The notes: generated from the letters alone by a model not told the origin. 64,000 nt of DNA from Candidatus Sumerlaea chitinivorans (GCA_003290465.1 CP030759.1:1205144-1269143); one strand, 5' to 3'. Numbered from the stretch's first letter, positions 534 to 33,442 are shown. A program made the numbers and translations.

Positions 534-1757
534 GCGCAGCGCCTCAACGGGATCCAGTCGTGCGGCTTGGCGGGCGGGATAGTACGAGGCCGCAAGGCAA
601 ATGGTAAGAGCTGAGAAAACGATGAGGATGTTCCACCATGGATTGATAAGGATCGGAATTCGATCTGACAGATAGGCTTCAGAGAGCAGGTCTATTTTTA
701 CATGGTATTTCAGTAAATAACACGTCCCGAGCCCGAGCACCGCGCCAATTGCCGTTCCCACCATTCCAATGAATGTCCCCTGGAAAAGAAAAATCCGCAG
801 AATGGCTTGCTCAGTCGCCCCCATGGATTTGAGAATTCCGATCTCCCGGGTTTTTTCGATCACCACCATGATGAGAGTCCCGATGATGTTGAAGGCCGCT
901 ACGAGGACGATAAGCAGAAGAATGATAAACATTGCCCATTTTTCGAGTACGAGTGCGTCGAAAAGAACAGGATTTCGCTCTCGCCACGTTGTGACGGTGT
1001 AATCGGGTCCAACCGCGGCCTGCACTTTTTTGCGCGCTTCGTCCACCTTCTCGGGATCATTTACCACTAAATGGATCCCATCGACCTCATTCGGAGGCAC
1101 CATGAATAGCGCTCGAGCTGTCTCCAAGCTTGTATATCCAATCATTTCGTCGGCTTCGGGAAAACCACTTTCGAACGCCCCGCACACAATCGCATTGCGC
1201 GCCAAAGCAGCTCCTCCAGTGGGAGTCCGCACAACTTTTGGAGAGAGCACGGTCACTTTTGTGCCGAGAGGGATGTAGAGCTTTTGAAGAATTTTTTTGC
1301 CCAACACGATTTCGCCGGGACCGGGCAGTTTTTTCCCAACGACTTTGTCCATGAGACGGGTCACATGCTGTTCCGCCTCCAAATCCACCCCTTGAATAAA
1401 AATCGCCGTCTGGCGTGGCTCCTCCCCTTCCCCAGGAACCACTTGGATGAGAGCTTGGCGCATAATGACGGGCCCCGCCGCTTTTACCTCAGGCACCGAG
1501 CGGACGATGGGCAACAGCTTGTCAGGATCCACCGGTGGCGAGTCCGTGGTGGTTCGAACAATTTCAATGTGCGCATAGGCACCGATGATTTTCTGGACAA
1601 GGTTTGAATCGAATCCCTCCATCACCGCAAGGACCACAATCAATGCGTAGACCCCCAGGGCGACACCCGCGATCGAGATGATCGTTATGAGTGAGATCAG
1701 CGCCTTATGTGTCCCTGAGAATAGATAGCGGCGTGCAATAAACGGCTCGAACCGCAA
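525..1757 (-). CDS. lolE: Lipoprotein-release ABC transporter permease, LolC/LolE (FtsX) family
   Basis: 410 aa; N-terminus MRFEPFIARRYLFSGTHKALISLITIISIAGVALGV typical of LolC/E; large extracytoplasmic domain between TM1 and TM2; C-terminal FtsX-type TM bundle. Apparent TTG start. Confidence 0.8.
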   Translation of the reverse strand: MRFEPFIARRYLFSGTHKALISLITIISIAGVALGVYALIVVLAVMEGFDSNLVQKIIGAYAHIEIVRTTTDSPPVDPDKLLPIVRSVPEVKAAGPVIMRQALIQVVPGEGEEPRQTAIFIQGVDLEAEQHVTRLMDKVVGKKLPGPGEIVLGKKILQKLYIPLGTKVTVLSPKVVRTPTGGAALARNAIVCGAFESGFPEADEMIGYTSLETARALFMVPPNEVDGIHLVVNDPEKVDEARKKVQAAVGPDYTVTTWRERNPVLFDALVLEKWAMFIILLLIVLVAAFNIIGTLIMVVIEKTREIGILKSMGATEQAILRIFLFQGTFIGMVGTAIGAVLGLGTCYLLKYHVKIDLLSEAYLSDRIPILINPWWNILIVFSALTICLAASYYPARQAARLDPVEALRYE

Positions 1758-1924
1758 CGATCACTCCTCTACTCAGTCATAGTTGCCCACGTAACTCTGT
1801 GGGATGATTGTCAGTCGACTCGCCGGTGCAAGTACAAACGCCATGCGTTGCGTCTGACAGGTGTCTCAAACAGTGCACTAAGAACCAGTTTCTCATCCAA
1901 GTTTAAACTGCATCAGAAAAGCTG

Positions 1925-1962
1925 TGGGGCTCTCCGACCTTTTGTCGGTCAGGAGAGCCCCA
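1925..1962 (-). terminator. Rho-independent terminator downstream of hppA
   Basis: Inverted repeat ggggctctccgacc / ggtcaggagagcccc forms a ~14-bp GC-rich stem just downstream of the hppA stop (1997); on the minus strand it is followed by a U-rich tract (cuuuucu). Coordinates approximate. Confidence 0.6.
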
Positions 1963-1996
1963 CAAGGATCTCGTTTTTTTGCGCGTTGCGTCACGC

Positions 1997-4180
1997 TTAA
2001 ATGAACAGTGGTGCAAGCACTAAGGTGACGGTGCTTAATAGCTTGATCAGCACGTGCAAGGAGGGGCCAGCCGTATCCTTGAATGGATCTCCAACGGTGT
2101 CGCCGACGACGGCTGCTTTATGGGCATCCGAGCCCTTTCCACCATATTGGCCCGTCTCGATATACTTCTTGGCATTGTCCCACGCACCGCCACCATTGTT
2201 CATGAAGAGTGCCATCAGAATGCCGGCAATCGTGCCGACCATAAGCAAGGCGGCGACAGACTGAGGTGCAACCCCTTCTTTCGTGACGAATTTCAGGCCG
2301 AAACCCAGCGCCGCGGGCACGACCACGGGGAGAATTCCCGGCAAGACCATTTCTTTCAAAGCGGCCTTGGTCACGATATCCACGCAGCGAGCGTAATCGG
2401 GTTTGTCCTTACCCTCCATAATTCCCGGCTTTTCACGGAATTGCCGCCGCACCTCCTCGATGACGGACTGCGCGGCTTTACCCACGGAGCGAATCGCAAG
2501 CGCGGAGAACAAGAAGACAAGCATAGCGCCGATCGATGCCCCAATGAACACCGGCACGTGCCCAAGGTCCACCGTGGTCATAATGGCTTTCCCGGCATGA
2601 CGTAGATACTCATTCACTTCATCGATGTAGGCTTGGAACAGCAGGAACGCGGCTAACGCGGCAGATCCAACCGCATAGCCTTTCGTCAAGGCTTTGGTGG
2701 TATTGCCAACTGCGTCGAGGCGGTCGGTCTTTTCGCGAATGCTTTCGGGCTGCTGGCTCATTTCCACGATTCCGCCCGCGTTGTCCGTGATGGGTCCAAA
2801 GGTGTCCATTGCCAAGATGTAGGCGGCAGTGGACAACATGCCCATGGTCGCAATCGCGGTACCGTACAAACCGGCGGCCGTGGGGCTAATACCCGCTTTG
2901 GTCATTCCACCCCAGCCACCGAGGACATGCAGCATCCCCAATTGGCCAAATTTATAGGCAAGCATCAGGGCCACCGAAATCACAACGATCGGAATGGCCG
3001 TGCACTCCATACCAACCGATAAGCCAGAGATGATGGTGGTGGCAGGGCCAGTACGGCAGGAGTCCGCGATCCATTTCACGGGGCGATACCGATACTCAGT
3101 GTAATACTGCGTAATCCACACGAACGCGTAAGAGCATAGGATACCGACGACTCCGGCGAGGAAGAAGTAAATCTGGCCCTTCAGAAGCAACAGGACAGCA
3201 ATGTAGAACCCGATAATCCCTAAAATCGTTGTGACGAGGTAGCCGCGGTTGAGGGCCGACATGGGATCCTCCCATCCACTCTCCTCGCTGCCTTTGACCT
3301 TTACCGAAAGCACACCGACGATCGAGGCGATGAGTCCCAAAGCACGCGCAAAGAGCGGGAACATGATTGCGCCCAAACCAAACACGGGGCCGTTTTCACC
3401 TGTGATTTTGTAGAGGGCGATACCGAGAATCATGGCCCCAATGTTCTCCGCAGCGGTGGATTCGAAAAGGTCTGCGCCACGGCCCGCACAATCGCCAACA
3501 TTGTCGCCCACGAGGTCAGCGATCACCGCTGGATTTCGAGGATCGTCCTCAGGAATGCCCGCCTCGACTTTGCCAACAAGATCAGCACCAACGTCGGCAG
3601 CCTTCGTGTAGATTCCTCCGCCGAGCTGAGCAAACAGCGCGACGAAGGAGGCGCCAAAGCCGTAACCTACGATTTGCAAAGGTACGATATCGGGGTTCTT
3701 CAATCCGTCAAAAATCCAAAAGAGTAACCCGACACCCAACAGCGACATCGCAACCACCATAATACCCGAAACGGCTCCTCCGCGTAGAGCAACTTGGAGG
3801 GCAGTATTGAGGTTTTTGGTCGCTGCAGATGCAGTACGAATGTTCGAACGAATGGAAATATACATGCCGATGAAACCGGCAAACCCTGAGCAAAATGCAC
3901 CGAACAGGAAAGAAATAAACGTCCGAATGGCCAGCTGGCTGCCCTTCTCCTTGAAGTAGAAGGCAAAGAGGATTGCCGCCAAAACCACAGACAGAATCGC
4001 AATGGTTTTGTACTGGCGCTTTAGGAACGCTTCCGCGCCCTCTTTAATCGCGTTGGAGATCACCTGCATGGCGGGTGTCCCCGTGTCTTTGGCCAATACC
4101 CATTTCGCCATTGCAAAGGCGACGATGAGTCCGGCAACTGAGATCAGCATCGTAACAGCGAAGACAAGTTGCGGCGTCAT
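1997..4180 (-). CDS. hppA: Membrane-bound proton-translocating pyrophosphatase (H+-PPase)
   Basis: ORF 1997..4240; motifs [40 protein letters not shown], many TM helices. Start re-assigned to ATG at 4180 (MTPQLVFAV...); track start is GTG. Confidence 0.93.
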
Positions 4181-4589
4181 AGAACCCTTTCCTAAATAAA
4201 ATTTTGTCGGGAGCCGGAGCCCCCGAGACACTCCTAACACTCACGCGCGCACTTAACGTGTCAAGCGAACTCACGCCCCATTAGGCCACAAAGATGCCAA
4301 GAGGCTTGCAGCAAAGACACGAAGAAAGCACGACGCTACCGAAAGCCAAACAAACAGCTTTTTAGTCTATGTATTCAAAAGATGGTCACAGGATAAGTTA
4401 AATCGTTCCAATTATTTAGTACAAATAATGTACTCTTTCCGCGCAAACATTGACCCTGCGGAACTTGTGGGACGCGAGAGAAGTTCATGCTTGCCGCCAC
4501 AGATCGGTATTATGCGATGGTTTATATGCGCGTCTTAGTTGGCGCCCGGTAAATGATTGAGGGGAGGCAAATGCACGAAGTGAATCAAC

Positions 4590-6161: not shown

Positions 6162-7757
6162 TCACTGGGCATTTTTCCCCAACGACTCTCGGATGCTATT
6201 GGCCCAACGCCGCACCTCGTCCGCTCGGCTCCCCCCAACTTGTAGGTACCGCTCGTAGTATTTCAACGCTTGTTGCTTATCCTGGAGATGATCATCGTAG
6301 ATGATGCCGAGGTTCAGTAGGGCTTTTTCATAGTTTGGGTCGAGCTCGAGAACTTTTTTGAACTGCTCAGCGGCTTTCGCATATTCGCCCTTTTCCATGT
6401 AAACAACCCCCAAGTTGTTGCGAGCGAATTTGTGTTTAGGATCGAGCTCCAAAGCTCTGCGAAATGCACCAATCGCGAGGTCGAGGCGGCGCAATTCTCG
6501 ATACACATTGCCACGCCGGTAGTAAATTTGCGGCTCATTAGGATTTTGAGCGATGGCACGATCAAATTGCGCCTCAGCCGCGTCCAGCTCACCTGCACGA
6601 GCTAAGGCCTCTGCAAGTAAGGCTCGCGTCTCCACATCATTTGGATTCAGTCGCAAAGCCTGCTCATATTCGTTTGCAGCCTCGACCCAACGCTCCGACT
6701 TGCGATAAGAATCGGCCTTCTCCCGGTGAAAAGCGAATGTTCCAAGAGCCACCTTCTCGCGATTACCGTAACCTATGGATCCTCGCTCCGCCCGACTTTC
6801 TTCGCTAAAAGCGACCCGGTTCACTTCTTCTGCCGTCGGCCGCCCGCCTTCAGTGGGCCCAGGACCTTTCCCACCTTCAGAAACGCGTTCTGGGGCATGA
6901 TCCCGTATCTCAATATCCTGACCTTCTTCTTGATTCCCCATCGCTGGCTTCCGCGCCTCGAATCCCCTCTTAGCTCCTGATGGCTTTGAGCCCGCACCCG
7001 TCTGCGCCTGAGCGCTCTTCCCGCGCTTATCCTGCGGTTGTTCGGCGTTCACGATTTCACGAGCAGGAACCTCATGAACGATTTCGACCGGCTGCTGAGG
7101 GATGACCTGGTCGCGCACTCCTCCGACAGGGATCGCATTCTGGGGGCTACGGGGAATAGGTGGGGAAAAAGCTTCACTGCTGACTTTTGGCGGCTTTGGC
7201 AAAAGGAGTCCGACCCGACCAATGAGAGGCCGAGGTTCTGGGGTCGCATCGTCAGGTGCGACTTCGGGCTTGCGAAGGGATTGGATGGTCTCGACTTCCG
7301 ACTGAAGCGCGTCGACGTTGGTGCGGGCAGACTCCTCGCCTTCCTCACTCGAGGCCCCATGCGCTGAACGTCGGCGACTCGCCTGACTGCGGACACCAAG
7401 TTTGGCCAACTCCGCCTTTGCGAGTTCATACTCAGGATTGAGCTCGAGGGCTTTCTCAAAAGCTTCCCGAGCTTCGTCCTTACGCCCTAACCGGGCATAG
7501 ATCCGTCCCAACTCGCAATAGGCTGCCGGCGAGGGTGCGAGGCTCACGGATTTTTGAACCGCCTCGGCAGCTTGTTCGAGCTGCCCGTTGCTTGCGAGAG
7601 CCTTGCCATGAGCAAGGTACTCGATCGCCTGACGACGCCCTTCAAGCGGTCGCGCAGCCGGTCCTGCATTCACGACTCCGGCGAATAGTGCCAATCCAGC
7701 CACGAAAAGTGTGATTCTGCTCGCCATTTCCTGTGTCCACATTCGTTTTTGTATCAT
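6162..7757 (-). CDS. Tetratricopeptide-repeat (TPR) protein, secreted or periplasmic
   Basis: 531 aa; N-terminal signal-like segment ITLFVAGLALFAGVVNAG; TPR-like repeats at both ends (AYCELGRIYARLGRKDEAREAFEKALELNPEY; YYRRGNVYRELRRLDLAIGAFRRALELDPKH; GVVYMEKGEYAKAAEQFKKVLELDPNY); central Pro/Gly/Glu-rich low-complexity region. Confidence 0.75.
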   Translation of the reverse strand: MIQKRMWTQEMASRITLFVAGLALFAGVVNAGPAARPLEGRRQAIEYLAHGKALASNGQLEQAAEAVQKSVSLAPSPAAYCELGRIYARLGRKDEAREAFEKALELNPEYELAKAELAKLGVRSQASRRRSAHGASSEEGEESARTNVDALQSEVETIQSLRKPEVAPDDATPEPRPLIGRVGLLLPKPPKVSSEAFSPPIPRSPQNAIPVGGVRDQVIPQQPVEIVHEVPAREIVNAEQPQDKRGKSAQAQTGAGSKPSGAKRGFEARKPAMGNQEEGQDIEIRDHAPERVSEGGKGPGPTEGGRPTAEEVNRVAFSEESRAERGSIGYGNREKVALGTFAFHREKADSYRKSERWVEAANEYEQALRLNPNDVETRALLAEALARAGELDAAEAQFDRAIAQNPNEPQIYYRRGNVYRELRRLDLAIGAFRRALELDPKHKFARNNLGVVYMEKGEYAKAAEQFKKVLELDPNYEKALLNLGIIYDDHLQDKQQALKYYERYLQVGGSRADEVRRWANSIRESLGKNAQ

Positions 7758-7817
7758 TCTTCCCTCGAGGAAGGGGAATTTTAGCTGTTCTGGGGCAGCT
7801 TAAGCTCGGCAGCCGGT

Positions 7818-8501
7818 TTAGTACGAGTACGCTTCATCCTCAAACACAAGCTTGCCATTCGCGAAACTAAAAACCATTTCCTTGGCTGACTTGAAAGGTG
7901 AACGATAAAGCCAAGTTTCGCGCCGAATGTTCGGCGCAATCGTTGTCGCAATTACTTCGCTTGGGAGGCCATAAACCAAGATGGTTCGCTCCTGATCTGT
8001 GAGCGGACCTTCGTAAACCATGGTGCGGTCCACAAATTGAAATAGGTGATTCAGCCGATGATAAACCCATTCCACGACCAGTTCGCCGCGAGTGGATTTA
8101 TAGGGTCCTCGGAGGTAGTCCGGCTGTCCCCACTCGCGAAGGATTGCTTTCTGCTCTTCGGATAGGACTTCGTCAGGTTGGCGTTTGAGGCGCTTCCCTC
8201 GCATTACATGTTCCACCCCGTGAACGTTCTCATAGTAAGGATACTTACGAAAATGAAGAACGTTATGGGTGTTTTGGGCTGGATAGCGCTTCGTGAGGAT
8301 GGGGCGGCCATCTTCGGTAAAGTCGTACTTGGGGCGTGGCGGACAGACCTGATTCGGCTGATAGCGACTTGGCTGCTCTCCGGATTTCCCCGTGTTAAAA
8401 AACGGGAACGAGAACAGCGGCTTTTGGGCATAAGTTGGCGAAGCCATCAAGATCGGAATAGCAAGGAAAAGAAGACTCCTACTCAGCCACTTGTTGCGCA
8501 T
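7818..8501 (-). CDS. Hypothetical secreted protein
   Basis: 227 aa; signal peptide MRNKWLSRSLLFLAIPILMASPTYAQ; no recognisable catalytic motif. Confidence 0.5.
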   Translation of the reverse strand: MRNKWLSRSLLFLAIPILMASPTYAQKPLFSFPFFNTGKSGEQPSRYQPNQVCPPRPKYDFTEDGRPILTKRYPAQNTHNVLHFRKYPYYENVHGVEHVMRGKRLKRQPDEVLSEEQKAILREWGQPDYLRGPYKSTRGELVVEWVYHRLNHLFQFVDRTMVYEGPLTDQERTILVYGLPSEVIATTIAPNIRRETWLYRSPFKSAKEMVFSFANGKLVFEDEAYSY

Positions 8502-8800
8502 CCGTTAGCACCTCAATTCTTGACCACTTCAGTTATGGCACCCAGCCACGTAAGCCAAACTGCTGCGCCGTGTCCACCGAGCGCCGTATTTTCTGTATTA
8601 TTCACACTGATCTGATTGCTGTAAGCAAGCAAGATCTGCGCCCAAACATTCTGCACTTGTTGGCTGCGCAGTGTGCGAATTTGCTGTACAAAGGGATTGA
8701 AGAGGGGGCGTAGTAAACGCGATTCTGCGTTTGCGGTTGGGATTTTTCCCCCAAAATCATGAAGTTAGTAATCCGTCGAAGGGAAATCGGTGCTCAAATG

Positions 8801-9235
8801 AAAAAACTGGTTTTGACGATTATTGGATCATTCGTCGTGACGGTCGCTTTCGCAGGGGGAGAACTCCCGCGTGGTGCGGCCGCACCTGAGCCGGTCCGTG
8901 TGTTCAAGCCGCGAGACGAACAGAAGCGGCTTGGCCCGCCTGCGGGTGATCAAACCGTTTGTCGTGAGGCACCGTTGCCTGCTCCGTACCGGCCGATTGG
9001 GTGGGGTAAGAAACTCCATGAGAAGTATGGCCCGACGTACTATTACCCGTCTGAGCGCGCCTATGAGGGACTGAACCCTACGTATTATCCGTTTTTCCAT
9101 CCGCGCTTGTGGCCGAACTACAAAGCCCCAGCGCAATATCCCCGCAACCATTTCTGCGGCAGTAGCCGAAGCGGCTGGTATTGGGATGAGTACGACGACT
9201 GGGTGCGGGGCGGCCGTTACGAAGAGCGCCAGTAA
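8801..9235 (+). CDS. Hypothetical secreted Tyr/Pro-rich protein
   Basis: ORF 8759..9235; start re-assigned to MKKLVLTIIGSFVVTVAFAGG (signal peptide). The overlapping minus-strand ORF 8828..9310 is Arg-rich and less protein-like. Confidence 0.45.
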   Translation, partial: KKLVLTIIGSFVVTVAFAGGELPRGAAAPEPVRVFKPRDEQKRLGPPAGDQTVCREAPLPAPYRPIGWGKKLHEKYGPTYYYPSERAYEGLNPTYYPFFHPRLWPNYKAPAQYPRNHFCGSSRSGWYWDEYDDWVRGGRYEERQ

Positions 9236-9553
9236 GACATAGGCAAAAATTGCACAGTTCGGGGCGAAAACGTTCGCGTAGGGAACATTTTTAGGACCAA
9301 ATTTGTCCAATATCTGGACTCACTCAGTGAATATCTCTTCCGGCCGAGCCGATGCGGGACAGCAGCATAAGTTTAGGAACTTCAACAAGATTTGTGCGGA
9401 TGGATGGTTTGAAGAAGGATAGAATCGACCACTCCGTTCTGCCACCTGAGCAAACGGAACAAACTTTGCTCCACTTGCAACGAACGATTGAACAGTCTTT
9501 GAGCTTGAATTTGGTACAGTGAATCGGAAGCATTTCTTCAGAAAGTGGGAAAA

Positions 9554-10369
9554 ATGGTGAGTACAATATCCACAAGGCGAAGAACCCATTCCAAAGCGCA
9601 GAAGCGTTTACGGGGTAAGACCTTGTCACGCGTAGCCGAACCCCTCGATCTGCACGATGAGGTGGTGGAGAGCGAGCCAGAGCAGCGTGCTTTGCTTCCA
9701 CGGGAGGAACCAGAAACAGTGCTGGAGAACGACTTCGAAAACCAAGAGAATCTCCTTATTGAAGAGCCTACCCCGAGCGAGGAAGAACAGCGCTTCCTCA
9801 CGGCGGAAGAAGAAAGGGAGATTATACGCCGAGTCCAGCAAGGCGACCGTGCGGCTTTCGAACAGCTGGTCGCTGCCTATGAACAGAAAGCCTATTACAC
9901 GGCACTGCAGTTTGTGAACAATCCAGAGGATGCGAAGGATTTGTCCCAAGACTGCTTCGTCAAGGCGTACAAAGCAATCAAGACGTTCGATATTAACTCT
10001 CCATTCTTCCCGTGGTTTTACAAAATCATCAAGAATCACTGCCTGAACTTCCTAAAGAAAAACCAACGGGTGCGTAGCGACTATATGTCGCAAATGGAGG
10101 AGGACAACCATCAGCAATTTGAAGACTCGCGCCAGCCAACGCCGAGTGACTGGTTCGTCAACGATGACGTTCGACACAAGCTGTGGCAGGCCATCGAGCG
10201 GCTCAAACCCGATTTCCGCGAAATCATCGTGATGAAGCACTTCCACAACCTCTCCTATAAGGAGATTGCGGAAGCACTCCAGATTCCAATCGGAACGGTG
10301 ATGAGTCGTCTGTTCAATGCGCGTCAGGAACTGCGGGAGAAATACGAAGAAGTTTTGAAAGGCAAATAG
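9554..10369 (+). CDS. RNA polymerase sigma factor, ECF (sigma-70 family) with acidic N-terminal extension
   Basis: Region 2 (FEQLVAAYEQKAYYTALQFVNNPEDAKDLSQDCFVKAYKAI...PFFPWFYKIIKNHCLNFLKK) and region 4 HTH (IIVMKHFHNLSYKEIAEALQIPIGTVMSRLFNARQELR). About 90 aa of acidic low-complexity sequence precede region 2. Track start is GTG at 9545; first ATG at 9554. Confidence 0.8.
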   Translation: MVSTISTRRRTHSKAQKRLRGKTLSRVAEPLDLHDEVVESEPEQRALLPREEPETVLENDFENQENLLIEEPTPSEEEQRFLTAEEEREIIRRVQQGDRAAFEQLVAAYEQKAYYTALQFVNNPEDAKDLSQDCFVKAYKAIKTFDINSPFFPWFYKIIKNHCLNFLKKNQRVRSDYMSQMEEDNHQQFEDSRQPTPSDWFVNDDVRHKLWQAIERLKPDFREIIVMKHFHNLSYKEIAEALQIPIGTVMSRLFNARQELREKYEEVLKGK

Positions 10370-10398
10370 GCGCCCATTTCAAGCAAGCGAAAGACTTA

Positions 10399-10438
10399 GC
10401 CCCGTCGCCGGGAAAAGCGACGGGGCTCTTTCTTATTT
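10399..10438 (+). terminator. Rho-independent terminator after the sigma factor gene
   Basis: gccccgtcgc-cgggaaaa-gcgacggggc stem-loop followed by tctttcttattt, about 30 bp downstream of the stop at 10369. Confidence 0.75.
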
Positions 10439-10815: not shown

Positions 10816-11955
10816 TCACGGCAGAGCATCGAGCAGTTGGTCGAGTTCCGACTCATCATTGTAAAAATGCGGGGAGACCCGCAAGAAGCCCCGCCGAGCA
10901 GCAATGAGAATCTTGCGCTCCTGAAGTTGCTGAACGATTTCGGAAGGGGAGATCCCTTCCTTGATGAAACTCACAATTCCCGCGCGGCTGGCCACGTCTG
11001 TCGGTGTGATGATTGAGTATCCCTTTCTTCGAACCCCTTCGATTACATACTCCGTGAGCTCCTGAACTCTGGCACCGATTCGCTCGAGTCCCACGTCAAG
11101 AAGAAGGCGGAGAGAACTTCCTAAAGCATGAATGGTCATCAAGTTATGGGACCCTTCCTCAAAACGCCGCGCATCTGGCTTATACGGCTGATCGTAGTTG
11201 TCGTAATCCTGCGGATTGGCAAGACCACACCAACCACACATGTTCAGATTCAGCTCCGGGATCCGCGAGCGCCGCACGTAAAGAATACCACACCCCTCAG
11301 GCGCCAAGAGCCACTTGTGGCCATCTGCTGAGAGAAAATCGACAGGAATTTCCTGAACGTCCAAAGGTAGAACGCCCAAGCCTTGGATAGCGTCCAAGAA
11401 GAACATCACGCCGCGCTCGGTACAAATCTGGGCCAAAGCTGCGATGTCGTTGCGCACCCCCGTGCCATATTCCACCCATGAGACCGCGAGGAGACGGGTT
11501 CGCTCATCTATTGCAGCAATAACGTCATCCAATCGAAAACGGTAATCCGGCTGTTCAGCAACCAGTCGCAACTCAACGCCCCGCTCAGCCAGATTTCGCC
11601 AAGGGTGAACATTTGCGGGGAACTCATGGGCAAACCCAACAATGTTGTCACCGGGGCGCCAGTTAATCGAGTTCGCAATAATTAGGATCCCGTGCGTGGT
11701 GTTGTGGGTGAAACAAATATCGCGAGGTTCAGCATTGATAAGGCGAGCTGCAGCCTCCCGCGCCTGTGCCATTCCATGCAGCCATGCGGCATAGTTCGCC
11801 GGACCTTCCTCAGCAGCATCTCTGGCGAATTCTGTGATCGCCATCTGCGTGGAAACAGGGATAGGCGCCACACCTGCATGGTTGAGAAAAACGTACTGCT
11901 CCTTGATTGGAAACTCGCTTCTCAGATCGAACGGAAACTCAGTATTCTTGCTCAT
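10816..11955 (-). CDS. Class V aminotransferase / cysteine desulfurase-family PLP enzyme
   Basis: 379 aa; FLNHAGVAP N-terminus, SADGHKWLLAPEGCGILYV (PLP-lysine motif), overall length and pattern of aminotransferase class V. Confidence 0.75.
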   Translation of the reverse strand: MSKNTEFPFDLRSEFPIKEQYVFLNHAGVAPIPVSTQMAITEFARDAAEEGPANYAAWLHGMAQAREAAARLINAEPRDICFTHNTTHGILIIANSINWRPGDNIVGFAHEFPANVHPWRNLAERGVELRLVAEQPDYRFRLDDVIAAIDERTRLLAVSWVEYGTGVRNDIAALAQICTERGVMFFLDAIQGLGVLPLDVQEIPVDFLSADGHKWLLAPEGCGILYVRRSRIPELNLNMCGWCGLANPQDYDNYDQPYKPDARRFEEGSHNLMTIHALGSSLRLLLDVGLERIGARVQELTEYVIEGVRRKGYSIITPTDVASRAGIVSFIKEGISPSEIVQQLQERKILIAARRGFLRVSPHFYNDESELDQLLDALP

Positions 11956-14391: not shown

Positions 14392-14772
14392 TTATGGAGA
14401 GGGCACAGGAATGATGCGTTTGACTGAGACACGCGGGCGACCCGCGGGGACGTGTGCGGTCACGACCAACGATTGCGTGGTAGCCTCTGCTCCGTCATTA
14501 AGGAGTGAGACCTCCACCACACCGGATTCAAACTCAAATCGGCTGGTCTGTGTCGTCGCGCGATCGCTCGCGTGGGCTTGTACTGCGCACACTGCACCTC
14601 TTGCCAGCCACTCCGCCTGTGCGCGCTCGACGGCGGCCGCAACGCGCTTAACGCTACGTACGTGAGACTCGGCAAGTCCGAACATAAGTATCGTCAGCAC
14701 GGCAAGAGCCCCCACAAGGTAGAGCATCGTCGTGCCGCGCTGCGTTTTCAATTTGACCTCGCTCGACCTCAT
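14392..14772 (-). CDS. Minor pseudopilin-like protein (GspK/J-like?)
   Basis: 126 aa; leader MRSSEVKLKTQRG followed by hydrophobic helix TTMLYLVGALAVLTILMFGLA; Tyr instead of Glu at +5; last gene of the pilin-like trio. Confidence 0.45.
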   Translation of the reverse strand: MRSSEVKLKTQRGTTMLYLVGALAVLTILMFGLAESHVRSVKRVAAAVERAQAEWLARGAVCAVQAHASDRATTQTSRFEFESGVVEVSLLNDGAEATTQSLVVTAHVPAGRPRVSVKRIIPVPSP

Positions 14773-15338
14773 CAGCGCTTCTCCTCCTTTCCTGCCCCAG
14801 TCAACGTCGCGGCCAAGGGGTCAGGCACTGCGTAAACTGTCAGCTGCTGGGTACTATGAAAAGCGTCGAACCCATCGCGAGTGGCTATTTCTAATACGAA
14901 TGCGCCCTCGCGCGTTTGAGACACCGAGACCGTTGTGAGATCCGATGCTAACCGCTGCTTGGCGATCGGGCGTCTGTCCGCTCCGTAACGCGTGCGTATT
15001 ACGCCGAACGTCCCCTCAGGGTTTTGCGTGATCTGGTACTCACATCTTGGAGCAACGGGATCCGCCTGCTCGAGCACCAACAGACGTTTTTCAGTAGCGG
15101 ACGTTTCCTGAAGGTGCCCTCGAATGGTCTTGTGGATGTCCGTACGCCATGCCTGCTCTAAGGTCACAAGTTCTTCCAAACGGAGTTGCTGGGCAGTCAC
15201 CCCCCGCTCGAGGCGGATCGTCATGATAAACACGGAGAAGACGCTGCCCATGAGAATTGCCATGGCAGCGATGACAATGAGCATCTCTATAAGCGTCACG
15301 GCCCGGTCAAATCGTTGCTTCAGCCAGTTCTTATTCAT
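14772..15338 (-). CDS. Prepilin-type N-terminal cleavage/methylation-domain protein (pseudopilin)
   Basis: 188 aa; basic leader MNKNWLKQRFDRA followed by VTLIEMLIVIAAMAILMG (class III signal with Glu at +5), but Ala rather than Gly at -1. Confidence 0.65.
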   Translation of the reverse strand: MNKNWLKQRFDRAVTLIEMLIVIAAMAILMGSVFSVFIMTIRLERGVTAQQLRLEELVTLEQAWRTDIHKTIRGHLQETSATEKRLLVLEQADPVAPRCEYQITQNPEGTFGVIRTRYGADRRPIAKQRLASDLTTVSVSQTREGAFVLEIATRDGFDAFHSTQQLTVYAVPDPLAATLTGAGKEEKR

Positions 15339-15799
15339 GGCTGCCTCCCTTGGTGTAGGCGTGTTGTCATGGTTACGCGCAAAGGACGATGCGGGAACGC
15401 CCCAAACATGCAGGATGCAGTTGCCGAAAGCTCCAGCATTCCGTGCTCGCGTCGTCGCACCCGCAACACGGTCTGTTCATTCGGGGCAAGGTCGGCTGCG
15501 GTCGGATTCGCAAAGGGATGTTCCCCTTCGGTGAGGGTTGCCAGACGCTCCGGCGACGCGACTTTCCACCATTCAAGTTCGTTCTGAGCCAACACACTGA
15601 GCCTTAGGCGTTCTTGGCTCACCCGAGTCCCCATCAGTGCCCGCTCACCGATTGTTAGGAATGCCAGAAATCCGGCGCTGACAATCGCAGCGACGACAAT
15701 CAGTTCAAGCAAGGTTATGGCGCGCGAGCGGTGCAGTGTCAGTTTGAGAAAGATTCGACGTCTGCGTTCCATATCGGCGGTCCTCCTTCTCACAGCCAC
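15335..15799 (-). CDS. Prepilin-type N-terminal cleavage/methylation-domain protein (pseudopilin)
   Basis: 154 aa; leader ...LHRSRA followed by ITLLELIVVAAIVSAGFLAFL (Glu at +5, Ala at -1). Track start is GTG; an in-frame ATG (MERRRR...) lies at 15772. Confidence 0.65.
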   Translation of the reverse strand: MAVRRRTADMERRRRIFLKLTLHRSRAITLLELIVVAAIVSAGFLAFLTIGERALMGTRVSQERLRLSVLAQNELEWWKVASPERLATLTEGEHPFANPTAADLAPNEQTVLRVRRREHGMLELSATASCMFGAFPHRPLRVTMTTRLHQGRQP

Positions 15800-16824
15800 T
15801 TATGCAACGTTTGGAAATGAGCAAAAATGCTTGCGACGTACGAGCCGACCAAGAGCCCGAGAACGCAAATAAGTGCGGGCTCGAGAAGGCGGTAAGCCAC
15901 CTCGAGATTGCCAAAGTCTTCCAGACTGCGTGCCGCAAGCCTACGGAAATACTGCTCCACATTCTCGCGCTCCTCAGCGCGCTCCAAGAGCCAGACTTCG
16001 GATCTGGGGAACCACGAGACCTTTGCGAGTCCTCGAGAAAGTGGCGTTCCGTGCTCGATCGCTTCGCGCAGTTCCTTCACGGTCTCGCCGACCAATGGCA
16101 AATCTGGCGTCTCGAGGATCGTGGCGAGCGCCTCGCGCAGGGGCACGCCCTCACTCAGCATAACATCCAGCATCGCCGAAAGGTGGTAGAGTCGCGCATG
16201 ACGCAATGTACGACCATAGACGGGAAGGCGGAGCAAAAGGCGATCTGCGGTAGCTGACCCTGGCCGAAAAACGCTAACAACGGTTAGCCCAACGCTGGTC
16301 AACCACACGAGCACGATGACCACCGTGAGGCAAAGCAAAGCGAGACGTACTGGCAAGAATCCGTGTAAATACGCCTCTCGCTGCCCTGTTGGGATGAATG
16401 CAAGAGCCACCTCCTGCAGCGGCCCGTACACGAACGCATAAAACACGACCGAGATAGCTGCAAGCAGCGTGAGAACTACCGCTGGGTAGACCAAGGCAGC
16501 CAAGAGAGCGTTCTGCAAACGACGCCGCATTTGAAGATACTCAAGGTATTTACTTAGGGCCTGTGGGAGCCGCCCACTGACTTCGCCAGCTCGAGTGATC
16601 GCGAGAAGGACAGGAGGTAATCGGTCGGCAACTCGTGCCAGCGCTTCGCTCAACGACTGACCAGCTTGGAGACCATTACTTACCACGTCCAGCCTCTTAC
16701 CAAGCGGACTCTGGCCAAGGCGCTCTTTCGCGCATCTCAGTGCGTCCGTCAGATCGACTCCCACTGCCCCAGCTCCAGCCAGTTCACTGACGAGTAGCTC
16801 AATTTCCTTCCAGCGGTAAGACAT
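15790..16824 (-). CDS. Type II secretion / type IV pilus platform protein, GspF/PilC family (paralog D)
   Basis: 344 aa; two T2SSF-like repeats (LQAGQSLSEALARVADRLPPVLLAITRAGEVSGRLPQAL and LSEGVPLREALATILETPDLPLVGETVKELREAIEHG) separated by TM helices; ATG preceded by GAGGAG. Confidence 0.75.
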   Translation of the reverse strand: MSYRWKEIELLVSELAGAGAVGVDLTDALRCAKERLGQSPLGKRLDVVSNGLQAGQSLSEALARVADRLPPVLLAITRAGEVSGRLPQALSKYLEYLQMRRRLQNALLAALVYPAVVLTLLAAISVVFYAFVYGPLQEVALAFIPTGQREAYLHGFLPVRLALLCLTVVIVLVWLTSVGLTVVSVFRPGSATADRLLLRLPVYGRTLRHARLYHLSAMLDVMLSEGVPLREALATILETPDLPLVGETVKELREAIEHGTPLSRGLAKVSWFPRSEVWLLERAEERENVEQYFRRLAARSLEDFGNLEVAYRLLEPALICVLGLLVGSYVASIFAHFQTLHKWL

Positions 16825-16834
16825 GGTTCACTCC

Positions 16835-18088
16835 TCACGTGTAAGGGATGCAGGTCACAATTTTGAAAATGGCGAGGTAGACAGTGGTCGCGAGTCCAAC
16901 ACCGCTTAAGAGAACAATGCTGTGAGCAGAGATGCCGAGCGTGTGTGCGAGAGCATGCCGTTGCTTTACCCAAATCTCTAACTGGGCCCTTCCTGCGGTG
17001 AGCAGAACATTCGGCATGGAGTCTGAGCTCTGTGCACGAGCAAGCAGATTTGAGAACTCTCTGGAAAGTTGCGGAACAATTGCGAACACTTCCTTCAGCG
17101 GCATACCGGACGCGAGTCGCTTCTCCAACTTAGGCAAAAATGCCCGCAACACAGGATCGCGAGACGCCTGCACAGCAGCCCGCAGGGCCTGCTCTATCGA
17201 CACGCCATACTTTAGGAATGTACCGAGAGTGAGCGAGAAGCGTATGAGCGCCTCTTGCCATGAAAACTCACGCAGCGGGCCGGCAATCGCGCGCACCATG
17301 CGACACGCGAGCGCACTTCGCCGATAAACGAAGTGCAGGACACGAATCGCCACTGCCAAGACGAGAACACCTACCACTACGTAGGACCACACGGCAAGCA
17401 ACCCATAGGAGAACGGCCAAACCTTCGCCGGTGCCACATCGGACTGCAGGAATTCTTGTTCCAAAACGCTGAATCGCAAAAGGATCAGCCAAGAAACGGC
17501 GAGAAGAACGAGACCCTCGGAATATGCAAGTGCTAGGTGGCGATTTGCGCCAAACCTGGACGGACTCGAGAGAGCCGGCTCTGATAACATGCTGAGCGCG
17601 GCACTCAGTGAGTCGCCTTTTTCGGCAGTTGTGATGACTGCAAGATCTGAGCTCGGGAAGATTGCCGGTCGCTTGCTCAGCGCGTTGGACAGAGGCGCTC
17701 CTGTGCGGAGTTCAGCCGCTATCTCGGTGAAAACTTTCTTCATGGCCTGTGGCAGGTCGCTGTTGGCAAACCCCTCGGTGATGCGTGCGGGATCGCCCCC
17801 AAGCTCGATGCCATCGCGCAAGTAGCAATAATAGGCTCTTCGTAGCACCGCCACGCGATACCGCGCATAGCGCGACTGTGCGAACAGGTGAATGTACATC
17901 ACCCAAACAGTAAGCAGAAGCAGCGCTAAGCCAAAGCGCACCATCTGATCCGCAGTACTCCTTGGCACACCCTCAACCTCTGTCGCTGCAGCAAGCACTT
18001 CTCTCCAAATGAAAACCGAACCGAGCGCGAGGGGCACAAACAGTATTGCCAGAACGATCGAGGATTTCGCCTTCAACAACATGGCCAT
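16835..18088 (-). CDS. Type II secretion / type IV pilus platform protein, GspF/PilC family (paralog C)
   Basis: ORF 16835..18313; start re-assigned to ATG at 18088 (MAMLLKAKSSIVLAILFVPLALG). Two T2SSF-like repeats (...LAVITTAEKGDSLSAALSMLSE; ...RAAVQASRDPVLRAFLPKLEKRLASGMPLKEVF) plus TM helices. Confidence 0.7.
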   Translation of the reverse strand: MAMLLKAKSSIVLAILFVPLALGSVFIWREVLAAATEVEGVPRSTADQMVRFGLALLLLTVWVMYIHLFAQSRYARYRVAVLRRAYYCYLRDGIELGGDPARITEGFANSDLPQAMKKVFTEIAAELRTGAPLSNALSKRPAIFPSSDLAVITTAEKGDSLSAALSMLSEPALSSPSRFGANRHLALAYSEGLVLLAVSWLILLRFSVLEQEFLQSDVAPAKVWPFSYGLLAVWSYVVVGVLVLAVAIRVLHFVYRRSALACRMVRAIAGPLREFSWQEALIRFSLTLGTFLKYGVSIEQALRAAVQASRDPVLRAFLPKLEKRLASGMPLKEVFAIVPQLSREFSNLLARAQSSDSMPNVLLTAGRAQLEIWVKQRHALAHTLGISAHSIVLLSGVGLATTVYLAIFKIVTCIPYT

Positions 18089-18131
18089 CGCCTCGCGTGG
18101 AAAATTAGCTGGCCAGCCTGCGCCCCCATCC

Positions 18132-19397
18132 TCACGCCTCCCCCACGATGCGTCGGGCTTCAGCAAGTGTGATAAGGCCAGCAGCAACACACTGAAGAGC
18201 TGCCTTCCAAAGTGAGGTGGTCCCGCTTGCGAGCACCAGTTGGCGCAGCTCTGCTGTTGGGGCTTTGCGTACAATTGCCTCGCGAAGTGGATCGTCGGGC
18301 ACGGAAACCTCAAAGCCAGCTCGACGCCCGCGATATCCCGTTTCCGAGCACGCTGGGCATCCCCCTACCTCGTACAAATGGTCTGGAATAGGAAGCCCTT
18401 CCCCCGCCCATAAGTTTTCCGTACCCGTTGCCGAAATCGGGCGCTTACATTGCGCGCACAGCTGTCGAGCGAGCCGCTGGGCAACGACCCCAGAAATGGC
18501 GCCCGCCAGAAGAAATGGCTCAATCCCCATGTGCAAGAGACGGGCGTAAACCTGCGCTGTCGTGCCACTGTGAATCGTCGAAAGCACCAAATGACCGCTG
18601 AGGCCTGCTTGCATGACGGTGGCGGCTGTTTCCTCGTCGCGTATTTCCCCAACGACAATCACGTCTGGGTCCATTCGCAGAAGAGTGCGAAGACCCGTGA
18701 GAAAGGTGAGCCCGCCCGTCGGATCGATCTGTGTCTGATTGACCCCATCTATCTCCTGCTCGATGGGATCCTCAAGAGTCGCGATATTCGGGATAAGGGG
18801 AGAACGATCGAGGAGAAAGCGCAGGGCTGCGTAGATCGAGGTGCTCTTGCCGCTGCTACAAGGGCCGGTAAATAGTATGACACCGTGCGACCGAAGAAGG
18901 GCTCGCTGAAGCCGCCCCAAATCAGTCGCAGACAGGCCCAACTCTTCAAGTCGGCGAGGAGCGATCTGGGTAGGGAGCCGCAGGACAGCCTTCTCGCCGT
19001 GGAGGGTTGGCATGAACGCGGCCCGAAGCGCCAAGCCATCATCGTTTCCGAGCCGACCGTCCTGCGGCAAACGCTTTCGATACGTAAGAACCTTCGCAAG
19101 CATTTTCAGGCGCGCTATGACGTTTTCGCCGCGCTTGCGCGACAATCTTGCGACAGGGATCAGTTGACCATCCACCCGGTAGCGGACGAGGTAATGATCT
19201 GGTCTTGCTTCCAAATGAATGTCACTTGCGCGCAACTCCTGAGCGGCGTTCAAGATCCTGTCCGTCAATTCGGGGACGGCCATTTCGTCTAAGGCCCCCA
19301 ACTGTTCGATTTCTTGCTTCAGGAAAGCAAGAACCGTTGGCGGCTCATGCTGGTCCGCTTCTGCTGCCACTCTGTTTTCCTTCGTGATTTCCGTCAT
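18132..19397 (-). CDS. GspE/PilB-family secretion ATPase (short form)
   Basis: Walker A FTGPCSSGKSTSIYA, Walker B-like DPDVIVVGEIRD, His-box HLVLSTIHSGTTA, C-terminal tetracysteine CAQC...CPAC. Track ORF starts at TTG 19538; ATG at 19397 (MTEITKENR) has an AAGGA RBS, giving about 421 aa. Confidence 0.8.
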   Translation of the reverse strand: MTEITKENRVAAEADQHEPPTVLAFLKQEIEQLGALDEMAVPELTDRILNAAQELRASDIHLEARPDHYLVRYRVDGQLIPVARLSRKRGENVIARLKMLAKVLTYRKRLPQDGRLGNDDGLALRAAFMPTLHGEKAVLRLPTQIAPRRLEELGLSATDLGRLQRALLRSHGVILFTGPCSSGKSTSIYAALRFLLDRSPLIPNIATLEDPIEQEIDGVNQTQIDPTGGLTFLTGLRTLLRMDPDVIVVGEIRDEETAATVMQAGLSGHLVLSTIHSGTTAQVYARLLHMGIEPFLLAGAISGVVAQRLARQLCAQCKRPISATGTENLWAGEGLPIPDHLYEVGGCPACSETGYRGRRAGFEVSVPDDPLREAIVRKAPTAELRQLVLASGTTSLWKAALQCVAAGLITLAEARRIVGEA

Positions 19398-19557
19398 ATC
19401 TTTAAGGTCCTTCGCCTGAGTGTTAGACGTCCAAGCCATGCGATTCGTTGACACTTGCCTCGCAATTGCTCTATCCCGCTCCAAATCCCCGTTCCTTGCT
19501 GCCGCTCCTCGCACACCTTGACTTCGCAAAGTTGGCAAATCGGTGGAGAATCCTGGT

Positions 19558-29053: not shown

Positions 29054-29389
29054 CCTGAGCCTTGGTCTTAGCCACTCCGGTTCACAAATCAATGCGAATG
29101 CACTAACGCGCGAATAACAAAAGCATTCGCAATGGGGCAGATTGAACCGCGCGATGACAATGAAAACAGGTGTTTTGCAATTCAGCTACCTGAACTGGAG
29201 ATCAGTTTCGGCAATGCATAGAAAGGCCGATGGATTGGATCGTTACAAACGTACATTCGTTTATCTTGATCGTCGAATCACAGGAACAATGAAGTCGTAA
29301 GTAATGTCAGAATAACCGAGAAGCGCTGGCCGCGCGCTCTCAAGTGAGGGGTGTGATCGCAGTCGAAGTCCACTGTGGAGGTGTGTACG

Positions 29390-29779
29390 ATGACTGCTAC
29401 AAACATTTCCCACAAAGTCCTTGTTCTCCTGCCTGAAAGAGACAAGCCCGCATTCGCTGTTTCCACTGGAACTCCACACCCGATTGAATGGGTCGAGGCC
29501 ACGTCACTCGAGGAGGCCGCGCGTATGCTGCGCGAGCTCGAGTTCGATTTTACGGTGATTGATGCGGACAACCCCTCGATTGATTACCGGAAGTGCATTC
29601 ATTTCGTAAAATCCACTCAACCCAAAGCCCGGGTGGTTGTGGCTGCAGAGATTGGGGATGACGAAATGTGGCTGGATGCGCTCGATGCGGGGGCTTGCGA
29701 TCTCGTGGAGAAACCCATTGATGGGACGTATCTTGAGCGTCTGTGCCACCGCGCAGCAAGCCGCGCCGCCGCCGCGTAG
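29390..29779 (+). CDS. Stand-alone receiver (REC)-like domain protein, degenerate
   Basis: ORF 29375..29779; ATG at 29390 preceded by GGAGG. Fold pattern of a CheY-like receiver (KVLVLL...FDFTVIDADNP...ARVVVAAEIGDD...DAGACDLVEKP) with candidate phospho-Asp and conserved Lys, but lacking the N-terminal acidic DD pair and the conserved Thr/Ser. Confidence 0.5.
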   Translation: MTATNISHKVLVLLPERDKPAFAVSTGTPHPIEWVEATSLEEAARMLRELEFDFTVIDADNPSIDYRKCIHFVKSTQPKARVVVAAEIGDDEMWLDALDAGACDLVEKPIDGTYLERLCHRAASRAAAA

Positions 29780-29898
29780 AATTGTTTGCCATAATTTTCT
29801 AAAATTTGTGAAGTGCACCTTGACAACCACCTTCTTGTTTTCGCGAAGTTCTCTTTGTTAGAATGGGAAAATAGCGAATTTTGGTCATAGGAGAGCGC

Positions 29899-30936
29899 AT
29901 GTTACTACCATCGCACTCGAAGAGGAACAAGAAGCGGGTTATTCTTTTTTTAGATACAGGTGATAATTGCCGATGTCCACTCGCAAAAGGCTACCTCACA
30001 AAACTTCTCGAAGAGCGTGGTATACGCCACATTGAGGTTAAAACGGCTGGTGTCATGACGCCAACGGGGCTCCTCCCCCAACCAGAAGTCGTCCAGTTAC
30101 TTAAAGAGGAAGGGGTCGACATCTCGCACCATCGCTCTCACCCCGTCACCGTCCAAATGATCGAAGATGCCGATCTCATCCTTGGGATGTCGTCTTTTCA
30201 CGTCCAGACGGCGATTCGCCGGTCGCCGGCCGCTCGGGGCAAAGCATTTCTTCTCAAAGAATATGTGGGTTATAGCGGCAAGGCCATCCAAATTGGCGAC
30301 CCAATGGGGGGGACGATGGAAATCTTCAAGAAATGCTTCGAGCAAATCAAGGATGCCCTCGAAAAGCTCGTCGAAATGGATATTATCCGCAAGCCGCCCG
30401 AAGACTGGACCGAACCCCCAGCACGAGCTCCGCGCGAAGGTGAACCCTTAGAGGCAGAGGCTGTAGGGGCAGGCGGAGATGGGCACGTAGGTTCGACCAC
30501 AACCGCAAAAAAAGAAACGGCTGCTGCAGGAGCGATCGAAGCTGGTACAAAACCCCGGCGCCGAGGGCGCCCACCCAAAAGCGCGCAGAAATCCGTAGAG
30601 GTGGCCCAATCCGCAGAACTCAAACGCAAGCGGGGACGTCCGCCGAAAAGCGCCAAAGCCGGTGAAGCTCAGGCGCCAGCAAAAGCTCCAAAAATAGGAA
30701 AGGCTACCGCCGCCGAGACAGGGCGCCGGAGAGCGAGTGCCCCCAAAGCCAAGAAAGCGGCAGCAGGACGGAGCAGACGCGTAGCGGTCAAAGGTTCTGC
30801 GAAAGCGGAATCAGCCCCAAAAGTGAGAGAAAAAAGCACTTCTAAGAAGCAGAAGACCGGGGAGAAAACCTCAACCAGAACTCCTCAACGTACAAAGAAA
30901 GCATCTGCAAAAACAGCTACAAAAAAATCCAAGTAA
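29899..30936 (+). CDS. LMW-PTP-fold protein with Cys-to-Asp P-loop substitution and C-terminal AT-hook tail
   Basis: ORF 29881..30936 (TTG); ATG at 29899 preceded by AGGAG. N-terminus VILFLDTGDNCRCPLAKG aligns residue-for-residue with the LMW-PTP P-loop (I-x-F-V-C-T-G-N-x-C-R-S-P), with Asp at the nucleophile position; DPMGG general-acid loop retained. C-terminal ~180 aa Lys/Ala/Pro-rich with two AT-hook cores (KPRRRGRPPKS, KRKRGRPPKS). Confidence 0.65.
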   Translation: MLLPSHSKRNKKRVILFLDTGDNCRCPLAKGYLTKLLEERGIRHIEVKTAGVMTPTGLLPQPEVVQLLKEEGVDISHHRSHPVTVQMIEDADLILGMSSFHVQTAIRRSPAARGKAFLLKEYVGYSGKAIQIGDPMGGTMEIFKKCFEQIKDALEKLVEMDIIRKPPEDWTEPPARAPREGEPLEAEAVGAGGDGHVGSTTTAKKETAAAGAIEAGTKPRRRGRPPKSAQKSVEVAQSAELKRKRGRPPKSAKAGEAQAPAKAPKIGKATAAETGRRRASAPKAKKAAAGRSRRVAVKGSAKAESAPKVREKSTSKKQKTGEKTSTRTPQRTKKASAKTATKKSK

Positions 30937-33352: not shown

Positions 33353-33442
33353 TGGCGGTGGGAGTAGGATTCGAACCTACGAGGGGCTTGCACCCCTGGC
33401 GGTTTTCAAGACCGCTGCCTTAAACCACTCGGCCATCCCACC
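33353..33442 (-). tRNA. tRNA-Ser (anticodon TGA)
   Basis: Reverse strand reads GGTGGGA-TG-GCCGAGTGGTTTAAGGC-A-GCGGT-CTTGAAA-ACCGC-(long variable arm CAGGGGTGCAAGCCCCTC)-GTAGG-TTCGAAT-CCTAC-TCCCACC-G-CCA. 7-bp acceptor stem, type-II variable arm, anticodon UGA, encoded CCA. Coordinates checked against the overlapping ORF's codon frame. Confidence 0.9.

Follow-up and report, generated by a model that had tools for sequence, protein, structure and literature searches.

Genetic arrangement of the sigma factor locus

We analyzed the gene of an extracytoplasmic function (ECF) sigma factor and its surroundings in a stretch of 64,000 nucleotides from Candidatus Sumerlaea chitinivorans (GCA_003290465.1, CP030759.1:1205144-1269143), here referred to as the window. 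The sigma factor carried a long N-terminal tail ahead of its conserved core and was not accompanied by an adjacent anti-sigma factor gene. Both features had been pointed out in an earlier, sequence-only reading of the window, which considered intramolecular autoinhibition by the tail in place of a partner protein. In window coordinates, the locus contained:

8759..9235, plus strand: gene of a small exported protein, 158 aa; likely start MKKL at 8798
9282..9310, plus strand: ECF (sigmaE/AlgU)-type promoter-like motif GGAACAT-N17-TCCAA, from a pattern match
9294-9308: palindrome GGACCAAATTTGTCC, overlapping the ECF-type motif
9455..9470, plus strand: -24/-12 promoter-like block CGGAACAAACTTTGCT (GG-N10-GC), from intergenic conservation
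9545..10369, plus strand: ECF sigma factor gene, 274 aa from GTG 9545 or 271 aa from ATG 9554
9545..9631, plus strand: basic part of the tail (residues 1-29), with 10 Lys/Arg and neither Asp nor Glu, net charge +10
9632..9793, plus strand: acidic part of the tail (residues 30-83), with 16 Glu and 3 Asp but without Lys, net charge -16
9794..10366, plus strand: conserved ECF core, residues 84-274, from Pfam, AlphaFold2 and the AlgU alignment
10398..10437, plus strand: intrinsic terminator of the sigma factor gene
10816-11955, minus strand: aminotransferase class V gene, convergent with the sigma factor gene

The public protein P0001 corresponded to the 271-aa form starting at ATG 9554 and was 100% identical to the window sigma factor. 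The peptide quoted in the sequence-only reading matched the translation of 9545/9554-10369 on the plus strand as well.

Classification of the sigma factor

Both domains of an ECF sigma factor were clearly recognized. In the Pfam search residues 108-175 matched Sigma70_r2 (PF04542; E 3.5e-17, 62 bits) and residues 211-263 matched Sigma70_r4_2 (PF08281; E 6e-16, 58 bits), with sigma2 encoded at ~9866-10069 and sigma4 at ~10175-10333 on the plus strand. Only ~35 residues separated the two matches, and neither Sigma70_r3 (PF04539) nor Sigma70_r1_1 gave a Pfam match in the protein at E values up to 0.1. A region 1.2 match of 19 residues stayed below the threshold (15.2 bits, cut-off 22). The NCBIfam model of the sigma70-ECF superfamily, TIGR02937, was passed with 119 bits (cut-off 42.9), and the 25 best of 118 NCBIfam matches were all ECF-type models. 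The Pfam and TIGR02937 matches thus agreed with the ECF assignment made earlier. Membership in group 3, where such extensions would be normal, does not apply, since region 3 was without a match and the linker between sigma2 and sigma4 is short.

Among the NCBIfam matches listed, the protein scored below every equivalog cut-off. This concerned the RpoE/AlgU models of ECF02 (TIGR02939, 129.0 bits, cut-off 236.15; PRK11922, 129.6 bits, cut-off 204), SigW (112 bits, cut-off 243), the BldN-family model TIGR02952 (70.9 bits, cut-off 206.45) and the SigR/SigH-type model TIGR02947 (SigH_actino; 88 bits, cut-off 251.55). A Bacteroidetes subfamily model was missed as well (123.4 bits, cut-off 126.4). 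The best matches among solved structures were AlgU of P. aeruginosa (E 2e-32), RpoE of E. coli (6e-28) and SigW of B. subtilis (2e-25). In an AlphaFold2 model built on a 34-sequence alignment, the core was predicted with a local confidence (pLDDT) above 90 and comprised eight helices, the first starting from residue 87. The protein is a two-domain, RpoE/AlgU-like sigma factor of the ECF type (group 4).

Composition and conservation of the N-terminal tail

Residue 2 of AlgU aligned to residues 84-85 of the window protein, so that residues 1-83 (nt 9545-9793) are additional. In the sequence-only reading the extension had been described as acidic and ~90 aa long. The length was about right, but the tail is not purely acidic: the strongly basic residues 1-29 (MGKMVSTISTRRRTHSKAQKRLRGKTLSR) had been overlooked, and it is residues 30-83 that are 35% Asp/Glu. 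In the AlphaFold2 model residues 1-80 had pLDDT values of 42-56 and no secondary structure, and the tail is thus predicted to be fully disordered. Because of this we describe it as an intrinsically disordered, two-block polyampholyte and not as a folded domain of the kind that region 1.1 forms in primary sigma factors; the analogy to that region, drawn earlier, found no direct support.

The 53 best protein matches (E 1e-59 or better) formed one orthologous clade. Members bearing an organism name all belonged to Candidatus Sumerlaeota, and the 11 loci found in a species-level genome collection were all from Sumerlaeota metagenome-assembled genomes (MAGs). Judged by these matches, the orthologous group is confined to Candidatus Sumerlaeota. 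In the orthologues the core boundary was marked by the motif FL[ST]PEEE[KR]xIIRRVQxGD, and the core of the window protein begins at the slightly looser form FL[ST]xEEE[KR]xIIRRVQxGD.

Every full-length member of the clade had 20-245 aa ahead of this motif. The next-best matches outside the clade (45-52% identical) had 0-33 aa ahead of the core, mostly 15 or less; the core of the window protein was 46% identical to the tail-less P0112. Among the orthologues the tails could not be aligned and were hypervariable in length and sequence. Common to them was a basic N-terminal tip of the form M-x-[KR]-x-K or M[AV]xT[LI]L.KK.KK. The segment adjoining sigma2 was net negative (-2 to -17) in most Sumerlaeaceae orthologues, and in the branch P0044-P0048 the tail was Lys/Ala/Pro-rich with a net charge of +9 to +63. 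The tail frame was open and Met-initiated in all orthologues, and in close relatives a strong GAAGGAGG Shine-Dalgarno sequence preceded its ATG. Since the open frame, the basic tip and the GAAGGAGG ribosome-binding site are kept, the tail is real and translated and not a chance open frame. At the core boundary the orthologues showed no conserved internal start in the same frame that is preceded by a ribosome-binding site. As far as these orthologues tell, the presence of the tail is maintained, its sequence is not.

The Sumerlaeota MAG L017 carried the sigma factor gene in two tandem copies (2600-3256 and 3260-4576). One copy was short-tailed. The other was P0048-like, 434 aa long, and had a Lys/Ala/Pro-rich tail of 245 residues with a net charge of +63, reminiscent of histone H1. 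The tails in L003 and L017 were basic, not acidic.

Absence of an adjacent anti-sigma factor gene

The strong terminator behind the sigma factor gene, already noticed in the sequence-only reading, was present at slightly corrected coordinates, with a stem at 10398-10427 followed by a T-tract. Its 11-bp stem had a folding energy of -26.2 kcal/mol (z -4.5), and none of 200 shuffled sequences folded as well. The gene had been called monocistronic. This is likely, given the terminator and the convergent next gene, but it falls short of proof, and a gene on the same strand ends 310 nt upstream.

The gene neighbourhood was examined in 17 distinct Sumerlaeota lineages. Downstream of the sigma factor gene these varied, with genes for an aminotransferase class V, a beta-eliminating lyase, a TPR protein, a PNPOx-like protein, a ferritin or a peptidase S13. 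An anti-sigma factor gene beside the sigma factor gene was found in none of the 17 lineages, so that the earlier statement for the window extends to all of them. The co-transcribed anti-sigma factor of the RseA/MucA type, which belongs to the RpoE/AlgU group (ECF02), was likewise missing behind the sigma factor gene in the window and in all 17 lineages.

A different arrangement was present in the nearest outgroup relatives, L004, L005 and L006, whose sigma factors are tail-less and 45-48% identical. In each of them a gene of 146-164 aa overlapped the stop codon of the sigma factor gene by 4 bp. The encoded proteins had an N-terminus resembling an anti-sigma domain (ASD; ...LDGELS...), an FWxxYW motif and two transmembrane helices, and the protein of L005 additionally contained an HxxxCxxC motif (HVGECHEC). 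By these features the overlapping genes encode membrane anti-sigma factors of the zinc-binding (ZAS)/ASD type. The outgroups are thus tail-less with a partner and the Sumerlaeota are tailed without one, so that loss of the adjacent anti-sigma factor gene and gain of the tail coincide. From this distribution the Sumerlaeota group appears to have lost the ZAS/ASD anti-sigma factor gene.

Among the six-frame open reading frames (ORFs) of the 64-kb window there was no credible ZAS/ASD anti-sigma factor, and no genuine ZAS ORF corresponding to the partner (RsrA/RshA) of SigR/SigH-type (ECF12) sigma factors. Two ZAS-motif matches were discarded: the first (36855-37166, minus strand) runs antisense to an amidase gene (36479-37663) and within it, and the second is an Arg/Gly-rich frame of 75 aa. 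Other sigma factor genes were not found in the window either. In the window and in 258 kb of DNA in all (~230 kb of Sumerlaeota), a phmmer search with the outgroup anti-sigma factors and a hidden Markov model built from the three sequences matched only L004, L005 and L006. The tail was also considered as a fused ASD; this was rejected, since it gave no match to the outgroup anti-sigma factor profile.

A conserved -24/-12 block upstream of the sigma factor gene

Alignment of 11 Sumerlaeaceae intergenic regions revealed a single well-conserved block, GGnAC(G/A)nTTT(A/T)TGCT. In the window it lies 75 nt upstream of GTG 9545, and in close relatives it reads TGGCATATTTTCTGCT, TGGCATGTTTTGTGCT and TGGCATATAGTTTGCT. 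The best consensus match per region had a shuffle p of 0.004-0.16 and was identical with the aligned block in all Sumerlaeaceae regions but L010 and L016. The block was present in all four loci that were fetched after the motif had been defined (L018, TGGAATGTATTTTGCT; L019, TGGTACAATCTTTGCT; L020, AGGCACGCCATTTGCT; L021, CGGAACGATTTATGCT). Over the 15 loci GG, A5 and GC were invariant and T11, T13 and T16 nearly so, while the flanks of the block varied and its distance to the start codon ranged from ~40 to 290 nt.

Sigma-54 promoters follow the consensus TGGCACG-N4-TTGCW. Their geometry, GG at -24 and GC at -12 with 10 nt in between, is found in the block at 9455-9470 and suggests a sigma-54-type promoter. 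Reading the block as the -35 element of an ECF promoter was rejected, because AAC varies between the loci (GGCAT, GGTAC and GGAAT occur) and the bases immediately 3', TTnTGCT, are conserved. Two further sigma-54-like matches in the window were too weak and were not used: one at 49892-49907 upstream of ftsQ, the other (GGGCGCAGATCTTGCT, 8628-8643, minus strand) 128 nt upstream of the gene of a 227-aa protein described below. In L020 the block (2971-2986) was located 14 nt from the called ATG (3001) of P0042. The true start in L020 is probably the internal MTTMTHKRRKKK, and the public start a gene-call error.

The ECF-type motif at 9282-9310 belongs to a pattern, GGAAC-N18/19-TCNNA, that occurred 10 times in the window (3.9 expected), and such motifs were also present in the same intergenic region of L007, L010, L011 (twice) and L016. 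The arrangement GGAAC-N16/17-TCnnA resembles the promoter consensus of AlgU/RpoE/SigW, and the motif at 9282-9310 may be an autoregulatory promoter. The palindrome recurred in L019 (818-832, GTACCAAATTTGTAC) and L018 (~2752-2767, GTGCCAATTTTGTCC), preceding the -24/-12 block by 160-230 nt. This position suits an activator, and the element may instead be the site of an enhancer-binding protein. A structured 5' leader was not detected: the leader had no Rfam match and folded no better than shuffled sequences (z +1.8).

A second match to the ECF-type motif (GGAACAATGAAGTCGTAAGTAATGTCAGA, 29283-29311, plus strand) was located ~80 nt upstream of 29390-29779, the gene of a stand-alone response-regulator receiver of 129 aa. 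Next to it comes the gene of a low-molecular-weight phosphotyrosine phosphatase (LMWPc; 29881-30936, plus strand), whose product has a basic tail of 190 residues. The receiver gene and the phosphatase gene may be members of the regulon.

The upstream small exported protein

Of the genes around the sigma factor gene, only that of the small exported protein was conserved. In 16 of the 17 Sumerlaeota lineages a homologue immediately preceded the sigma factor gene in the same orientation, and family members of ~150 aa were found, for example, in L001 (7194-7652), L003 (7202-7765), L018 (2204-2659) and L021 (1879-2361). The signal peptide of the protein ends in AFA|GGELP, and its C-terminal region, rich in Tyr and Pro, is conserved (YGPTYYYPS...YEGLNPTYYPF.HPRLWPNYK...SRS.WYWD.YDDW.RGGRYEE.Q). 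A search of 5.8 billion proteins retrieved 66 homologues; those with an organism name, a minority, were all from Sumerlaeota. No Pfam domain was detected in the protein, and its AlphaFold2 model was poor (mean pLDDT 52.7).

Only ~15 cytoplasmic residues precede the signal peptide, and the protein contains no ASD. It cannot be a classical anti-sigma factor, because essentially no cytoplasmic part exists. Judged by gene order only, it is probably linked functionally to the sigma factor, be it as its target or as an extracytoplasmic element of the signalling pathway.

In L021 a called gene of 455 aa (1507-2874, minus strand) overlaps the real small-protein gene (1879-2361, plus strand) and looks like a gene-call error. 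Divergent from the pair of small-protein and sigma factor genes, the window carried the gene of a 227-aa exported protein with a weak, below-threshold GWxTD match (7818-8501, minus strand) and a gene for a 531-aa TPR protein (6162-7757, minus strand). The two genes kept this divergent orientation in L001, L018 and L020.

Possible control without an anti-sigma factor

Our preferred explanation is that the sigma factor is controlled mainly at the level of transcription, via sigma-54 and a bacterial enhancer-binding protein. It is tentative, and we assign it a probability of roughly 0.45. After loss of the membrane anti-sigma factor gene of the ZAS/ASD type, control would have shifted to the synthesis of the sigma factor. 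Its own -24/-12 promoter would allow synthesis of the sigma factor solely upon the firing of an enhancer-binding activator, and the ECF-type motif further upstream may add autoregulation. The tail would then act as an accessory modulator that, for instance, damps binding of the free sigma factor to DNA or core enzyme, or sets its turnover. Such an accessory role, and not that of the main switch, is the most likely one for the tail. The conservation of the sigma-54-type promoter candidate suggests a simpler reason why no anti-sigma factor would be needed.

Several observations weigh against transcriptional control by sigma-54. The block in the window has two mismatches to the sigma-54 consensus, and matches with two mismatches were about as frequent in the window as expected (39 vs 37.6), which is not significant alone. 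For the short-tail subgroup a weak sigma-70 promoter, TACA-N16-TATGCT, is another way of reading the block; as a general explanation of the block this was rejected, since it is possible in that subgroup only, and we retain it as a caveat. The two most distant Sumerlaeota lineages, L003 (~7790-7820) and L017 (~2490-2520), carry a sigma-70 promoter instead of the block, with near-consensus elements TTGACA-N17/18-TATCAT or TATAAG. Regular expressions for a GAFTGA motif and an RpoN box detected no genuine case in the window and the fetched loci; the lone match lies in an EamA transporter and is spurious. Finally, our view of the genome spans 64 kb, and an unlinked anti-sigma factor may lie elsewhere. 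A search of the literature returned nothing direct on sigma-54 in Sumerlaeota. An indirect hint is given by Sumerlaeota MAGs reported with ZraSR, as ZraR is a sigma-54 activator (PMC10866078).

The explanations discussed in the following are not mutually exclusive. The tail could be a built-in anti-sigma factor, with the acidic stretch folding onto those surfaces of sigma2 and sigma4 that bind DNA or core enzyme or, like region 1.1, mimicking DNA in the polymerase channel until a signal relieves the inhibition; a partner protein would then be dispensable. The coincidence of tail gain and anti-sigma factor loss is the best argument for autoinhibition, but it is a correlation and not a mechanism; the negative charge next to sigma2 in most Sumerlaeaceae orthologues fits as well. 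We nevertheless consider this explanation unlikely. The main objection to DNA mimicry lies in the tail itself: by prediction it is fully disordered, its length (20-245 aa) is hypervariable and its sequence unalignable, and in P0044-P0048 it is strongly basic, up to +63, so that charge mimicry is not conserved in the whole group. AlphaFold2 does not dock the tail on the core, the tail shows no sensory motif, and a separate control route at the promoter level is conserved. The autoinhibition considered in the sequence-only reading found no direct support. A broader version, in which the disordered basic-then-acidic tail replaced the zinc-binding membrane anti-sigma factor phylum-wide as a post-translational brake, as an unstructured equivalent of region 1.1, combined with a sigma-54 cascade and wiring to the exported protein, seems quite improbable to us.

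An unlinked or unrecognizable anti-sigma factor or other regulator, perhaps acting through the small exported protein and a membrane component, would be compatible with the 64 kb of genome visible and with the pairing of an orphan, Sumerlaeota-only exported protein with the sigma factor in 16 of 17 lineages. However, the small protein, with ~15 cytoplasmic residues and no ASD, cannot bind a cytoplasmic sigma factor, ECF anti-sigma factor genes normally adjoin the sigma factor gene, and searches of the window and of 258 kb (~230 kb of Sumerlaeota) yielded no ASD/ZAS ORF. Regulation of this kind is improbable in our view.

It is very unlikely that the tail is a pro-sequence cleaved as in BldN, or a Clp/Lon degron that would limit the response like that of the long sigmaR' isoform. 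Proteases typically take hold of disordered termini, the basic tip is conserved and both precedents are documented (PMC7826278). Against this, the window protein is far from the respective models (BldN, 70.9 vs 206 bits; SigH/SigR-type, 88 vs 251 bits), the orthologues lack the conserved second start at the core boundary, and no protease gene is conserved nearby. That the tail is a neutral low-complexity expansion, common in proteins of this lineage, is highly doubtful, since all orthologues have kept one, its basic tip is conserved, most show the basic-then-acidic order, and outgroup relatives have none, even though its hypervariability and the long charged tails of the LMWPc phosphatase (29881-30936), the amidase (36479-37663) and the TPR protein (6162-7757) would fit.

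Other genes of the window

Long charged low-complexity segments were present in unrelated proteins of the window; a crude scan flagged 6 of 52 ORFs. The amidase (plus strand) has a charged, Lys/Ser/Ala-rich C-terminus, and in the TPR protein the charged low-complexity segment is located in the middle. The remaining features recorded in the window were:

525-1757: MacB-like permease
1997-4240: H+-pyrophosphatase
14772-19538, minus strand: type II secretion/type IV pilus cluster (pilin-like N_methyl protein, T2SSF, T2SSE)
33356-33442, minus strand, and 47071-47151, plus strand: tRNA genes
47207-49712, minus strand: ftsA and ftsQ

Comparison with known sigma factors

Sigma factors of the ECF type represent a main signalling device of bacteria, and cases without an anti-sigma factor show how the switch can be rebuilt. 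They are also attractive for synthetic circuits, as they need no partner. The present group offers a clean natural comparison between relatives with an anti-sigma factor and no tail and a whole phylum with a tail and no anti-sigma factor, which makes the question of what replaces the anti-sigma factor directly testable.

The closest solved structures, AlgU/RpoE (envelope-stress factors of the ECF02 type) and SigW, have the same two-domain architecture. They differ in that the window sigma factor has no partner gene of the RseA/MucA or RsiW type, and they lack the tail of 83 residues. In primary sigma factors, region 1.1 folds into a helical domain. The tail resembles it as an acidic N-terminal segment ahead of the DNA-binding domains, but it is predicted to be unstructured, begins strongly basic and gave no match to the Pfam model of region 1.1.

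N-terminal extensions are the least studied addition to ECF sigma factors, and only that of BldN is well described (PMC7826278). Known examples are BldN (ECF121, cleaved pro-sequence), SigC (ECF36s4) and the long, unstable sigmaR'/SigH isoform (ECF12s1) (PMC7826278). BldN and sigmaR'/SigH are comparable as ECF sigma factors whose N-terminal extension is cleaved or destabilizing. However, both keep an anti-sigma factor, and the window sigma factor misses their family models. For SigC of M. tuberculosis, inhibition of DNA contact by the extension has been proposed, with the mechanism unproven (PMC7826278). SigC was absent among the PDB and NCBIfam matches listed, and the window tail differs as a disordered polyampholyte without conserved sequence.

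With regard to control, the best parallel is HrpL of Pseudomonas syringae (ECF32), which has no anti-sigma factor and whose amount is set by a sigma-54 promoter and enhancer-binding proteins (PMC8999054). The same logic is proposed here for the window sigma factor, with sigma-54 dependence deduced from the motif only. The two proteins are not closely related in sequence, HrpL is not among the best NCBIfam matches, and it lacks an N-terminal extension. SigE of S. coelicolor and SigH of P. gingivalis are also ECF sigma factors without an anti-sigma factor that are controlled transcriptionally. If control by sigma-54 holds true, the locus would represent a second, independent cascade from sigma-54 to an ECF sigma factor of the HrpL type, in an uncultured phylum. 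Since extended ECF sigma factors as well as transcriptionally controlled ones without an anti-sigma factor are already known, we regard the Sumerlaeota sigma factor as a lineage-specific variant and not as a categorically new type.

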